Assembly (NCBI GenBank): GCA_964187785.1
Contig: OZ076409.1
Span: 9,364,001 to 9,428,000, forward strand
DNA from: Amphiscolops sp. MND2022
Taxonomy: Eukaryota
Direction of reading: 5' to 3'
Length of the DNA stretch: 64,000 nt
Shown: positions 659-16,700 of the stretch, piece after piece
How the letters are laid out: each line of letters starts with the position of its first letter
How positions within the stretch are numbered: the stretch's first letter is position 1
Position numbers and translations under genes: made by a program
The notes under the pieces: generated by a model
The model's input: only the letters and a program-made list of their open reading frames with translations
Told to the model about the DNA's origin: nothing
Database searches by the model: none

Positions 659-3600
659 TCATTTATCACCAGAATCTTTCTTAGCCTTCTTGCCCTTGAT
701 TACTAGCTTCTTAGCCCCGCTGGAGCTACTGTCAGAAAGAAACGGGACATCTGCGACTACCCGAGGAACAGAAAATGTCGGAGTCGAAAGTTTAGGACTA
801 GAACCTTTGGGTTTACCACTTGATTCAGCTCCTCGAGCTCTGCCTGGAAAAGGAGTAGGTTGCACAAATTTGCCACTTGAAAGGATAGGCCCAGGAGCAG
901 ATGTTTTGGGGCTAACCACAACGGAAGTCCATAAAGCTTCTTCATCGGAGATGGTACACGTATAACGCGACTCCAGTTTGTTAAGCAGTAGGCGCCGTCG
1001 AGAAGAACAGGAAGCAGTGACATCCCAAACTGAAAACGTCGCGTCAGACAGTAAAGCATTGCCTTTACCAAGCAACGAGAAAACAGGTGAGATTGTGCGA
1101 GGATTTGAAAAAAGCCCAGACACATTAGGAATCCCAGATAAAGAGGACTGGATACTTCGGACAGACGATCTAAATTCATCGGCATCAGAAGCTAGCTGAG
1201 GAAGTGTCACGGTGAAATGAGGCGGGATTGCGGAATGATTGGCAAGGCTAAGACAACATAACTTGAAGGCAAGGAACAGGTTCTCACGGCAGTGCATTTC
1301 ATAGTAACCAGACAAGAAATCCACCCATTCTCCGTCATGTTCAATAACATTGGATCCAAACTGAGCGACAAAGGAGTGATATTCGCTGTAAATCAAAGGT
1401 TTTACATTACTGCTGATCCATTTACTCTCCACAAAGAAATCACGAAGCATCTCGCATTCACGAGAGTAATCTTCTTCCTCGCCATGCCGCACGATAGCTT
1501 CATCAAAGATGAAAAATCCTCGAACCAATTTGGATTTACAAACTTTATGGCTCAATAACAACGCACAGATGTTTCTGCAGAAACACAATGCCTGCTCCAC
1601 AAAATGGGTAGGTGTCGGAATGCCCTTCTCAGCTACCAGATTAGCAAAATCTCTATTACGGAGAAAATCTGCAGCAGTCTTTAAAGGAAGGCTGTTTGAT
1701 GAGAGATCAATTGACAGGAAATGATCCCAATCAGACACTTCTCCGAGAATTGACTCCGGAAGGATAGCTTGCAACTGTGAGTAAGTAAAGGTTGCGAAAG
1801 CGCTGTAAAAGCGGAAGATGTCTGGTGATGGCCCATAGACATTTTTGAAGGCAGAATTATCTAAACACAAACGAAATGAAAATGGGGTAAGAAACCCGAT
1901 GACAACCGCAAAAAGGAAAAACTTACAATGCAAGAGAACATTCCGAATCAGGAACAACTTCGCAGGATACGTCTTGTCCTTGTAGGTAGTCTCATCAAGG
2001 CTTTTGGGCAGGAAAGAAAAAACAGATATGAAAGGTGAAGCGAATAAAAGAAGGGGGAAGATAAACGAAACTCACTTCTTTCATGTGGTAACGGAAGGCT
2101 TTGATCCTGTCTGCGAGCCGGAGGTGCGAAACAACGTGGGACCAGTTCATAGATAGCTGTCCAAGGATAATAGGGATATCTTCGTGGCGAAATTCAAAAC
2201 TGTGAATGGCCTGAAACAAACCACATAATGATTGCTACTTGACTTGCACTGATAAAAACTGAAAATTATGATGCATCATGCTGAATTTTGAATACAGCAT
2301 AGCATGGAACACAGCATACAGTATAACCTATGAGGATAATGCGGAAATCAGAACAAAATTGCATGACAAGAAAAACCCTATGCAGAAAAGTACAAAAAAC
2401 AACATAAAACTAGTGCACAACGTGCAGCGCAGTATAATGCAAAGTGGAATGATTTTATGCAGTTTTCAGAAGAAAACAGCATGCCAAACGAAATTATGCT
2501 GTTTTGAATAAAGAAACAGCATATTGGATTGATTTTATGCAGTTTTCAGAAGAAAACAGCATGCCAAATGAAATTATGTTGTTCTGAAGAAGAAACAGTA
2601 TATTGGAAAGTTTTTATGCAGTTTTCAGAAGAAAACAGTATGTCAAATGAAATCATGCTGTTCTGAAGAAGAAACAGCATATTGGAATGATTTTATGCAG
2701 TTTTCAAAAAAAAACAGCATAACAAATGAAATTATACAGTTTTGGAAAAGAAACAGCAAACAGGATAAACCTTATATAGTTTTCAGAAGAAAACGACATA
2801 TCGAACGAGGTTATGTTCATCTGGAGAAGAAAACACATACCAAAATCATTTAATGCAGAAAAACAATACACCGAACGAATTCACGCTGTTCAGACATTGA
2901 ACAGTAAAGTGAAATATTTGTAAATTACCTTTCGCAACTCAGGAAGGTTGCTCATCCAAGCGGAATCCAGAGCAGTGCGCAACTTCATGAGGAAGAAATG
3001 TAAAACGCTATGAAGATCATATCTGGCAAGAATCTTGATAGCCGGTCCTGCAAGGACTTTGTACAAGTCTTCATAACCGAAAGTCGGTACAGCGCAAGGC
3101 GACGGAGCTTGGAGTAATTCAGTTTGTAAGGTTTTGACAGTCTGCGCATCGAAACCAAGCAGAGAATAGATGCTAACGGGGGTACTCGTTATAGCCAAGA
3201 AACAACCAGCAACTTCAAGGACATTTTTAGCTTCAATCAGGCTGGGGGTAATCTCCGCAAGTAGAAGGTGATTGAGGACGTTCCCAGACCAAAATGATAC
3301 AGACAATTAGGTACATTCAGGTGTAGTTTGAAGCTGCAAAGAACAGCTTCCAGATTGACTAATCGCCTGGGCAGTGAATTGCAGCAATTCCCGGAACATA
3401 TAGATCAGCACTCCCTAAGAAAAGGAAAGAATGAGTTTAGATAACAAATGGTAGATAATAGACAATTAGTAAAACAATACTTACAAAGACACGTTCTGGA
3501 CACCAATTGAACTGGGGAACTTTTGAAGGCCCACGAATCTCTGACCCGAGGCTACTCCAAAGTGAACGCACGACGTCTAATCCTACGCCATGTTGCAATC

Positions 3601-13700: not shown

Positions 13701-16700
13701 CAATAACCAAACAGCAAAATTTAAAAAAAAACGAAAGAATGACGTCGGGCCTGGAAATCGAAATCGCGCAATAAAAGGCTCATACCATCAGCACTGACGC
13801 CCGCTCAGTACCTGAATGTTGCCTTCGCTTTTTCACAATGTAACTACTGTACTCTTCAATTGCGGCTTTTGCTTCATCACTCTCCACAACACCGCAAGTC
13901 ATCAACAACTGACAGAGATCGGAGAACAAACTAAAGATAGTATGATCATCCCCTTCCAGCATAATCTCCGGACAGAAGCTGTACAAACAACGGGATACTC
14001 CTGATTTCTCACAAACACGCTTTCCACAATGAGGACTGCTAAACGTTTTATAAAATCGCGACACAAGACCCGGAAATCCTTCACTTCATTCGTCTTACCA
14101 CCGGGTGATTGCTTGCCATAATCACAGTTCATCAGGAAACTGTACATCGAAGCATTAGGAAGAGCAGTTATCTTTAGCACATCCATATACTCCTCCCAAT
14201 CATCAATCCAGGGAGAGCAGCAATGTCTTTCGTTTTCTGTAACAAGCAATACACAAACTTACAAATCTCACTATAGCCATGAAAGTCGTAGTATGCACGA
14301 CCTTGGAAAAACTTCTCGAAATTGAGGTAAACTAAATTAACACTCTATTAGACAACGTTGTGATAACGAAACCCAACAAAATCACAACAAACAGTCGGAC
14401 AGTCAAGCTCAGCCAAAAAGAGAAACAACTAGTCAATTTACGGAGATCAAGCCTAACTCAAAATTATACTTACAAGTATCGAGCAGCAAAGATGTACAAA
14501 GTCAGCCCCGCCCCTCATCTAATAAACCACAACACCAAGTATTATCAACAATCAAACGGAAAGAAAAAGGAAACAACGATGAACATATATACCTAATTGT
14601 ATANNNNNNNNNNNNNNNNNNNNNNNNNNNNNNNNNNNNNNNNNNNNNNNNNNNNNNNNNNNNNNNNNNNNNNNNNNNNNNNNNNNNNNNNNNNNNNNNN
14701 NNNNNNNNNNNNNNNNNNNNNNNNNNNNNNNNNNNNNNNNNNNNNNNNNNNNNNNNNNNNNNNNNNNNNNNNNNNNNNNNNNNNNNNNNNNNNNNNNNNN
14801 NNNTCCAAACTCTGAACAATGTCACCTAACGGCAACAATTCGGCATCAGGTACTGGCTGCTCCATGGACTGACTACCCACACAAACTCTCCCTCACACAA
14901 GGTGCTCTCCCTCCCAGTACACGATAAAACAATACTCGTTCATCCCTTCTTTCTCATATGGCAAACTGTAGGCATTGAAACTCAGAACATGACACAACAC
15001 CAGACGCAACACTCGCGGAGCCAGTCCCTGACACAAGAGCGACTGAAACAGAACCAACACACTATCACTCAACGACAACACAACGGACCAATTGACCAAG
15101 ACAAGGATTACAATCCAAATAAAAACAATCACTACTTACTAACGTCTCAGAGCAGCTCCATTTCACCTCCTCCACTTCCCAAGAATTCACACACGCAGTC
15201 CACCAGTGTCATAAGTGGAACTCTGGATGTTGATTGAGAATGTCGAGGGAACAAATCTTCAGGGAAAAGATATTCAGGCCCCAGATCAACAAAAGGCCGA
15301 GCCAAGTATTCAGCACGTTGTTTGTCCGACAGCTCCATGGGTTCTAACAACTTGTTATAAATGAGCGTACCCATATGGACCCGGTAGGTCACATCTCGAG
15401 TCCAATGACTTCTGCCACCAAAATGACGATCAAACTCCATCCTCCATGCGACTCAATGCAGACGTCACGGCGAAAGATGCGGCAAAAGAAGTTTTTATCG
15501 ATGTCACACTTCGCCCCAATAACCAAATCTTTGTACATAAGATTCACGTTCAACATGCGTCTCCTTAGAAGGTTCCGACTACTGTATTTACGAATTTTCT
15601 GGTTGCCATCATACTCTTCAACTTTTCCAGCAAGGGTGTGAAACCCTACAACAGAAACAACCATGTTCACGATATCACACATTCATACTGCATAAACGCA
15701 AAAAGACTCTCTTACGAGTCTCAATCGTCCGACAAGTTCGATATTCAACTTCGTCAAAAATACGTCGAATCCACTCAGCTATGTCTTGAGGACTCACTAA
15801 TAACCCACTAACAGTAGGTGCAATGACACCAACGTGACCTATGCAATTACCAGACTAAATACTTATTGCGAAACGTACAACCAAACACTACCGAAACAAC
15901 ACAACTAAATGCTCCAACCACCTTCGGTAGCACAGCGACCAACAGGAGTCTGAACTTCTTCACGCGGATCTCGTGGAGTCTCAAATGACACAGACTTCTT
16001 CTGCGAAGTGCCAGAACCAGAATCTGAATAACAAACAACACACAGAGTAAATGTACCCGGAACGATCACAACCATCACCCAATTCAATCATCAAACTCAT
16101 CTGTTTCACTTGCGGAGGGGGCGACAGCCTCACCTACTTGAGGCTCGTTTATAAACCCTCCTGGGGTCGTACTGCTGGCAGCGCAAGGATCACCAGTATC
16201 CAAACGCTAGTAGGACGCCCTGTCTGTGGCATCTGCGGTGCCGGGAATGGATTCATCAATGACAAGCGGCCTCAATACGGAAGACAACACAGATGAGACA
16301 GGAGGCAAGGCCATAGAAGAGGACGTAAGATTCATGTCTGTTCCAGTGTTACAAACAACAGAATTACCAGGTTGAGCCACTGAAAATCAATATCTGGATT
16401 CAGACGCGTCAGATAATCGGGTAAGACTAAATTGGCTGATCACAAAAAACAATAGTCCAATTACCCATGGAAGTCAAAGACTTTTACCAAATTGAAGTGG
16501 CACGCACGTCCTCAGTCTCTGAAACCCATAAACAGTGTCATTACCACTAATGAACCCAGCACTAGTTGCGGGAATGAGTTGAAATCCATCTTCACAAACA
16601 AGGAATAATGAAATCTTTAAAAAAAATTCTAAAAGAAGAAAGAAGATTAGAAGAAAGCCAAGAAATTTACAACTCATGGAGAACGTCCTGAAGAAGTAAT

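Follow-up and report, generated by a model that had tools for sequence, protein, structure and literature searches.

A stretch of 64,000 nucleotides from Amphiscolops sp. MND2022 (assembly GCA_964187785.1, contig OZ076409.1, positions 9,364,001 to 9,428,000 of the forward strand; hereafter the window) contains two diverged elements, each of which carries a multi-exon gene on the minus strand, antisense to the element. In our judgement this antisense gene very probably belongs to the element as a fixed accessory gene. The complete reading, in which a Gypsy-type accessory gene encodes a disarmed hAT transposase acting as a putative DNA-binding regulator of its own element, is plausible and has somewhat less than an even chance of being right. 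The element context described here is that of this 64-kb window alone.

Placement of the antisense gene in two elements

Element 1 extends from before position 1 to about 8999 and contains, in order, the 3′ tail of a sense open reading frame (ORF; 1..412, plus strand, ending ...YNLRPSPNPN...), the antisense gene (gene 1), a spacer, a sense ORF of 321 amino acids and a 1,201-bp unit resembling a long terminal repeat (LTR). Element 2, which is cut off on its 5′ side near 12345, is arranged as a sense tail (12345..12954, plus strand), the antisense gene (gene 2), a sense ORF of 239 amino acids and an ORF start at 19824. The two sense tails measure approximately 410 and 590 nt inside the window and are followed by 8.6 kb and about 7.2 kb of DNA, respectively. 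Each is the best match of the other in the window (31% identity over 54 amino acids, E 0.006; next match E 0.42). Both carry motifs like those of Gypsy integrase ends, including what we take to be a GPY/F-like stretch in element 2, and the tails are therefore presumed to be the end of pol in element 1 and of integrase in element 2. Judged from these sequences, the host elements are likely Gypsy retrotransposons. Reverse transcriptase, RNase H and integrase domains of elements 1 and 2 were not found within the window, nor was an LTR pair for either. An earlier note on this DNA had spoken of two giant Gypsy elements; this wording found no confirmation in the window, where the tails are short and match no domain, an LTR pair is lacking and the tails are followed by just 8.6 and about 7.2 kb. 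An internal part of more than 20 kb is the criterion for 'giant' in the accessible part of PMC6431247.

The 1,201-bp unit (7799..8999, plus strand) has TGT...ACA ends and is read as the 3′ LTR of element 1. Its termini form an inverted repeat matching at 18 of 19 positions, for which the next best match in the window is 13 of 19, and it has no target site duplication (TSD) of its own. On condition that the tails are pol, the antisense gene thus lies between the end of pol and the 3′ LTR in two diverged elements. The distance from the stop codon of the sense tail to that of the antisense gene is 246 nt in element 1, and 181 or 283 nt in element 2. That genes only 22% identical should have inserted twice, independently, at one site and in one orientation behind homologous tails is unlikely, and an accessory gene is therefore favoured.

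The earlier note had named terminal inverted repeats (TIRs) and an 8-bp TSD around the gene as the sign of an independent hAT insertion, and these were looked for and not found. The flanks contained three inverted pairs of 11–12 bp in element 1 and two in element 2, none of them with a TSD of 6 out of 8. No TIR of at least 7 bp with a TSD of 7 out of 8 was present in the flanking zones of either element, a result to be read with the proviso that old copies could have lost both features.

A short repeat also links the gene to its element. All 11 copies of AAACAGCAT in the window lie in element 1, six of them in a 79-bp tandem array inside intron 3 of gene 1 (2439..2832, approximately 4.4 copies, with an internal period of 40 bp) and five in the LTR-like unit. 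Outside the array, the core of this repeat, ACAGCAT, occurs 10 times in 2861-9005 (6.1 kb), compared with a mean of 0.8 and a maximum of 3 in 300 resamples. Four of these copies lie in the region upstream of gene 1 (5485..5825), a candidate antisense promoter. The same placement seen twice, the absence of TIRs and TSDs, and a repeat common to the intron, the upstream region and the LTR-like end together sustain, within the window, the earlier proposal of a fixed antisense gene as opposed to a nested hAT element.

An antisense intron appears in the genomic RNA as CT..AC, is left unspliced there, and is hence copied by reverse transcription. Read on the plus strand, the introns of gene 1 are CT..AC or CA..AC, so that the genomic RNA would keep them.

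Structure of the two genes

Gene 1 (659-5176, minus strand) consists of six exons with a total of 3,302 nt, or approximately 1,100 codons. Exon 1 (5137..5176), which supplies the start codon, is tentative and is covered by no relative. Exon 2 (3485..4841) encodes a long disordered stretch followed by a finger (C-x2-C-x16-H-x5-H, approximately 3922-3842) and a helical segment. The product of exon 3 (2929..3414) has a predicted order of strand-strand-strand-helix-strand, obtained with a crude propensity scale, and is read as an RNase-H-like core without a conserved Asp. Exon 4 (2076..2210) is represented in a relative, P0266, that reads from exon 3 into an exon-4 homologue, and exon 5 (1927..2008), whose upstream acceptor is non-canonical in this copy, in relative P0279. 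Exon 6 (659..1860) encodes an all-helical region, aligned to the insertion domain and C-terminus of the Hermes transposase, and then a disordered Lys-rich tail. The introns measure 295, 70, 718, 67 and 66 nt; all five have a GT donor and four have a canonical acceptor. They are T-rich, with a T content of 0.41–0.54 compared with 0.24–0.32 in exons 2-6. The exons, GT donors, T-rich introns and relatives thus bear out the minus-strand multi-exon gene that had been noticed at 659-5176. This copy is broken three times: the reading frame shifts within the finger, near 3930, an in-frame stop lies at 3309-3307, and the acceptor of intron 4 is non-canonical. A further candidate exon at 2820-2771 was rejected, as it belongs to the tandem array and P0266 passes directly from exon 3 to exon 4.

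The last exon of gene 2 (13136..14331, minus strand) is spread over three frames; there is a stop at 13238, and the frame may run on to 13136. The upstream exons (14474..16468, minus strand) include the H-x5-H part of the finger at approximately 15490-15400, a donor at 15139 and a short exon ending at 14474. An exon-3 homologue, placed by eye with a profile score of -2.5 bits, runs from 15042 into a 200-N assembly gap (14604-14803) that lies inside the gene. Gene 2 has several stops and frameshifts and is more decayed than gene 1. A homologous minus-strand gene is therefore present where the earlier note had put one (13238-16468), with the qualification that the start at 16468 is doubtful and that the frame may extend to 13136.

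Homology of the two genes was detected by tblastn within the window (22% identity over 179 amino acids, E 2e-6). A profile built from the close relatives of gene 1 alone also matched gene 2 (16.3 bits, independent E-value 1.3e-6), and a wider profile, which includes close relatives of gene 2, matched it in three frames over 14320-13456 with a best score of 91 bits. Introns 2 and 5 of gene 1 have counterparts in gene 2, where donors and acceptors occur at the corresponding positions. No DNA similarity between the genes was detected by blastn (E 1e-4) or tblastx (E 0.01). These results agree with the earlier note in three respects: the genes are homologous, both have the order of disordered N-terminus, finger, EY... 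and FKLCC, and obvious similarity at the DNA level is absent.

Relatives of the gene

With the last exon as query, 5,148 candidates yielded 43 relatives, and 1.84 billion representatives clustered at 50% identity yielded 234, of which 150 were listed; with exon 3, 107 candidates yielded 51 relatives. The relatives that were looked up are ENA predictions without names, except for one JGI fragment of 35 amino acids. Pairwise identity ranges from 12 to 95% with a median of 33%, calculated over 48 of the 81 aligned last-exon rows. The cluster of P0176 has 59 near-identical members with open last exons, and some subfamilies are therefore young and numerous; gene 2 falls into the distant branch to which P0176 belongs (43% over 191 amino acids). 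With contigs matched by their length, the exon-3 cluster was present in all seven contigs that have the last-exon cluster, or six of six when the window's own locus is left aside, as expected of a single gene. Splice sites are conserved in the family: in the exon-3 alignment, conservation ends at the donor, and the relatives continue as unrelated read-through sequence. Three relatives, P0236, P0266 and P0279, read through introns into adjacent exons and therefore confirm the exon order. Since the exons themselves served as queries, it is in part a consequence of the design that relatives cover them.

No related locus was found in viral, metagenome or prokaryote contigs, and none of the relatives collected reads into a pol tail. 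There was no relative among 7,169 longer candidates, and thus no full-length spliced protein, which is weak evidence. Exact look-ups of the sense ORFs and of the ORF in the LTR-like unit found 1 of 16 ORF variants from the window, this one being the window's own junction. A family tree was made with a quick method in which long branches meet, and was used for depth of divergence only. On these sequence comparisons the gene family is large, old and conserved. Two other LTR elements in the window, a decayed one at about 47.5-60 kb and a small one at 21.7-27 kb, are without the antisense gene.

Likeness to hAT transposases and absence of conserved catalytic residues

A structural model of the last-exon product, based on 81 sequences, was all-helical with a predicted local distance difference test score (pLDDT) of 84.8 and a predicted template modelling score (pTM) of 0.63. 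A model from 27 close sequences had reached a pLDDT of 36.5. When 44 of the 46 chains returned by Foldseek were re-aligned to the model, Hermes (8sjd_B) came first with a Z score of 5.4, compared with 2.9 for the next chain; by the yardstick of the tool, this value is within chance for helical proteins, a Z below 8 (13 for helical proteins) being one that may reflect a common arrangement. The alignment is colinear and comprises 173 residues with a root-mean-square deviation of 9.8, placing model residues 8-244 on Hermes 371-609, a stretch that we equate with the insertion domain plus the catalytic part at the C-terminus. The match carries weight because both the chain and the region had been predicted in advance.

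The N-terminal part points in the same direction. Up to its first His, the finger of gene 1 has the spacing C-x2-C-x16-H of the Hermes BED domain, which is formed by C51, C54, H71 and C73 in the accessible text of PMC10368747. The distance from the finger to the end of the aligned region is 625 residues, compared with approximately 560 in Hermes. From the model and this spacing, the protein is probably of hAT ancestry.

In hAT transposases the third residue of the Asp-Asp-Glu (DDE) catalytic triad lies in an ERxFS-type motif. No E[RS]xFS was found in any of the 81 aligned last exons, and where the third residue would be expected there is a proline-rich coil without a conserved Glu. In the 46 exon-3 proteins, with catalytic columns assigned by eye, Asp was never present at the first of the expected positions, where strand 1 ends, and was present in 21 at the second, in strand 4. 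Thus the absence of ERxFS after the CCL helix, noticed previously in the window, extends to the whole alignment, and the description of the enzyme as 'dead' agrees with these counts. If the hAT frame holds, loss of catalysis would be the firmer part of the argument. As both TIRs with a TSD and the DDE residues were looked for, and neither was found, the gene is not to be filed as a hAT transposon.

A possible history and function

We propose that a hAT element once inserted in antisense orientation behind pol, where its introns and promoter would survive retrotransposition. It would then have lost its ends and its catalysis, the gene being retained since a finger combined with an oligomerising scaffold was useful. 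Selection on the gene is implied by open frames across the range of 12–95% identity. The gene may be transcribed antisense from its own promoter near 5200-5800, and its protein would enter the nucleus by means of the Lys-rich tail and bind the (AAAC)AGCAT repeats, which lie in the LTR, upstream of the gene and in the intron. Bound there, it could act as an activator, an anti-silencer or a feedback repressor, and element transcription would be switched on or protected. In Hermes, the BED fingers of the oligomer bind short repeats scattered in the element ends (accessible part of PMC10368747). Given element membership and hAT ancestry, a self-binding transcriptional regulator is more likely than not.

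A more ambitious version, which we put forward as a speculation that is unlikely to be right in full, is that an old Gypsy lineage domesticated an entire hAT transposase, introns included, and that the dead enzyme oligomerises, as a sequence-specific regulator, on repeat arrays which the element evolved in three places (LTR, promoter and intron), protein and motif co-diverging by family. If true, this would be domestication of a transposase by another transposon and not by the host, and it would provide a ready test system for the function of antisense accessory genes in LTR elements. Already in the simpler proposal, a candidate origin (a hAT transposase) and a candidate binding site (a 9-bp repeat that occurs in the element only) make both origin and function testable. 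If that proposal is right, it adds a route of exchange between class II and class I elements, and a 4.5-kb gene of six exons would have travelled with a retrotransposon over a very long period without change in its intron positions.

Evidence against the proposal and alternative explanations

A number of results weigh against the proposal. Pfam searches of the 81 last exons, the 46 exon-3 proteins and the finger pieces gave no hAT, BED or RNase H family; PF05699 was matched by none of the 81 last exons, and the null result for the finger comes from pieces cut by the frameshift. In Foldseek nothing was significant, and Hermes stood at rank 25 (E 7.8, TM score 0.18). A wide search of 48,161 chains gave no Z of 5 or more, and Hermes appeared there only as 2bw3_B (Z 4.2), through a different part that was out of order. 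The fold comparison covers the last exon, with exon 3 and the finger outside it. As to the elements, neither sense tail had a match in Pfam or PDB sequence searches, so that they are presumed to be pol from short motifs. There is no polypurine tract before 7799, where 5 of 15 positions are purines, in contrast to the clear tract of the small intact element (21663-26979); in element 2, too, no such tract was found. The gene was seen in context in two copies only, both broken. The AAACAGCAT motif was chosen after ranking of k-mers, element 2 has no comparable motif (best score 9.8 compared with 35.7), and the repeats could equally serve a host factor. For the earlier proposal of a hAT-derived protein the support is therefore structural and weak: it consists of the colinear match to Hermes, and nothing significant came from Pfam, PDB sequences, Foldseek or the wide search.

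These negative results would be explained if the gene were a true accessory gene encoding an orphan protein of non-hAT origin in which a C2H2-type finger is combined with a helical domain; the likeness to Hermes would then be due to chance. No family was assigned by Pfam, PDB sequence searches of the last exon and exon 3 returned nothing significant, all Atlas matches were below 0.9, the viral fold library had no match to the last-exon model, and neither Foldseek nor the wide search reached significance. We nevertheless consider this origin unlikely, as the only outstanding chain on re-alignment is the one predicted beforehand, over the expected region and in the expected order, and as the order and spacing of the domains fit hAT.

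A disarmed hAT protein kept by the element might also act at integration or on chromatin, where it would tether the pre-integration complex or shield the ends. Such a role would account for the whole transposase scaffold, beyond the finger, appearing to be kept, and for the motif copies in the LTR-like end, a part that the cDNA contains. Other copies of the motif, in the intron and in the region upstream of the gene, are distant from the ends of the cDNA, and a gene antisense to, and thus outside, the gag-pol polyprotein would presumably need a separate route of packaging. We regard this role as distinctly less probable than regulation of transcription.

An independent family of DNA transposons, non-autonomous or with an unusual active site and nested in retroelements, would fit a multi-exon, multi-copy gene of transposase size that is seen twice in context, and it would fit the conservation of other acidic columns (D133 in 45 of 46 exon-3 proteins, D119 in 58 of 65 last exons). 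This explanation is improbable in view of the absence of TIRs, TSDs and ERxFS, of two genes only 22% identical that share their site and orientation behind homologous tails, of the 180-280 bp that alone separate the two stops, and of a motif held in common with an LTR-like unit beyond the next ORF. That the carriers are not Gypsy elements, and belong to another LTR class or consist of tails and a 1.2-kb unit that are unrelated pieces, would undo the idea of capture by a retrotransposon, but is very improbable: the window has no reverse transcriptase, RNase H or integrase domain for them and no polypurine tract, and LTRs do not usually have terminal inverted repeats as long as 19 bp, but the tails are homologous with motifs like those of integrase ends, and the unit has TGT..ACA ends without a TSD of its own. 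A fixed accessory gene of hAT ancestry that regulates its own element thus remains the explanation we prefer.

The 3′ regions of the elements and other features of the window

The second sense accessory ORF of each element faces away from the antisense gene. That of element 1 (6347..7312, plus strand, 321 amino acids) is of low complexity with a C-terminal CxxC..H..C..C segment and has no Pfam match. That of element 2 (17195..17914, plus strand, 239 amino acids) is likewise of low complexity and has no detectable homology to it (E 0.07). An AATAAA near 7564, between the ORF of element 1 and the LTR-like unit, could shorten the genomic RNA. A 58-bp tandem repeat at 18510-18689, in the 3′ region of element 2, is a possible counterpart of the repeats of element 1. 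The ORF start at 19824..20201 (plus strand) marks the probable 3′ end of element 2 (...AACA) and enters host-like repeats at about 20202; no LTR start matching this end was found. In element 1 an ORF from 8447 runs past the end of the LTR-like unit. Between this ORF and the one at the end of element 2 no homology was detectable. At 8447-8999, 19824-20201 and 63095-63518, ORF starts resembling gag N-termini overrun the apparent LTR-like ends, suggesting from sequence that gag may begin inside the LTR in these lineages.

A young Gypsy element at 21663-26979 has 246-bp LTRs that are 100% identical, a 5-bp TSD, a primer-binding site and a polypurine tract. Its single open ORF of 1,549 amino acids contains protease, reverse transcriptase, RNase H and the zinc-binding part of integrase, with no integrase core detected by Pfam; it is possibly a recently mobilised element with a deleted integrase. 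This insertion splits an array of five diverged short coding units (20203-21583 and 27111-27308) that share the motif QEAC.YY..NQ.FT.EHQ.ALK, are spaced by 350-450 bp and have no clear Pfam family. A large decayed LTR element at 47500-60200 has a 1.9-kb tandem duplication (48718-52550, 97.7%) and an integrase-core remnant near 55334, followed by 3-4 kb of unexplained ORF remnants. At 59230-59929 (700 bp), two identical 138-bp direct repeats surround an ORF of 105 amino acids; AAGT is present on both flanks and the ends are not TG..CA. This is a small young insertion or a local duplication. Pieces of host genes of the papain family (cathepsin L-like, with I29 propeptide and Peptidase_C1) lie at 11458-11919, 35273-35635 and 36817-37293, scattered among the elements over more than 25 kb.

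Comparison with known systems

A close parallel in layout is the plant Retand/Tat group of Gypsy elements with antisense ORFs, represented by TRP28 (Transposase_28, PF04195), GENE23 of maize Grande and rice RIRE2. In the accessible texts, these elements likewise carry an antisense ORF in a long region between pol and the 3′ LTR, together with tandem repeats, conservation across the lineage and a proposed regulatory role through DNA binding. TRP28 is encoded by 97% of Retand clusters, with tandem repeats nearby (PMC11963269), and GENE23 of Grande is nuclear and has its own promoter (PMC7264820); both papers, as far as accessible, list the origin and function of antisense accessory genes as open. 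TRP28 is described there as limited to flowering plants and dissimilar to other known transposable elements, and neither main text mentions an intron. By contrast, the gene described here encodes approximately 1,100 amino acids in six exons with a layout of finger, core and helical region, and PF04195 had no match in the products of gene 1, the 81 last exons, the 46 exon-3 proteins or the finger pieces.

Among fungi, Boty-like elements of the Gypsy type in Botrytis carry an additional antisense gene, brtn (Zhao et al. 2011, as cited in the accessible part of PMC8365987). It resembles our case as an extra antisense gene in a Gypsy element and differs in being fungal, with no transposase-like layout mentioned in that text. 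Gypsy-type elements enlarged by captured accessory domains are also reported in planarians (Burro; PMC6431247) and bdelloid rotifers (PMC5408684). Their extra domains (MATH, BIR, BCL2, env, DEDDy and GDSL) are not described, in the parts of these papers available, as antisense, spliced or transposase-derived. The corresponding parts of PMC12477314 and PMC8220671 contain a general statement only. In the literature covered, with most subscription papers, Repbase, Dfam and supplements outside that scope, no LTR element was found to be described with an antisense gene of hAT origin.

With the hAT transposase Hermes the gene product shares the spacing of the N-terminal CxxC finger up to the first His and a similar overall spacing, and it has the weak colinear match to Hermes 371-609. 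It differs from hAT transposases in having no conserved DDE residues or ERxFS motif, in the lack of TIRs and an 8-bp TSD around the gene, and in its extra helical region and long disordered ends. Unlike domesticated hAT proteins, which are fixed at one host locus, it is carried by a mobile element; a likeness to proteins of the ZBED/ZNF862 type is presumed. The binding of short internal repeats by the BED domain is a feature of Hermes (accessible part of PMC10368747) to which the repeats of element 1 may correspond. An antisense accessory gene in an LTR element is thus a layout already known, and it is the cargo, its size, the conserved six-exon structure and the candidate motif for self-binding that look new.

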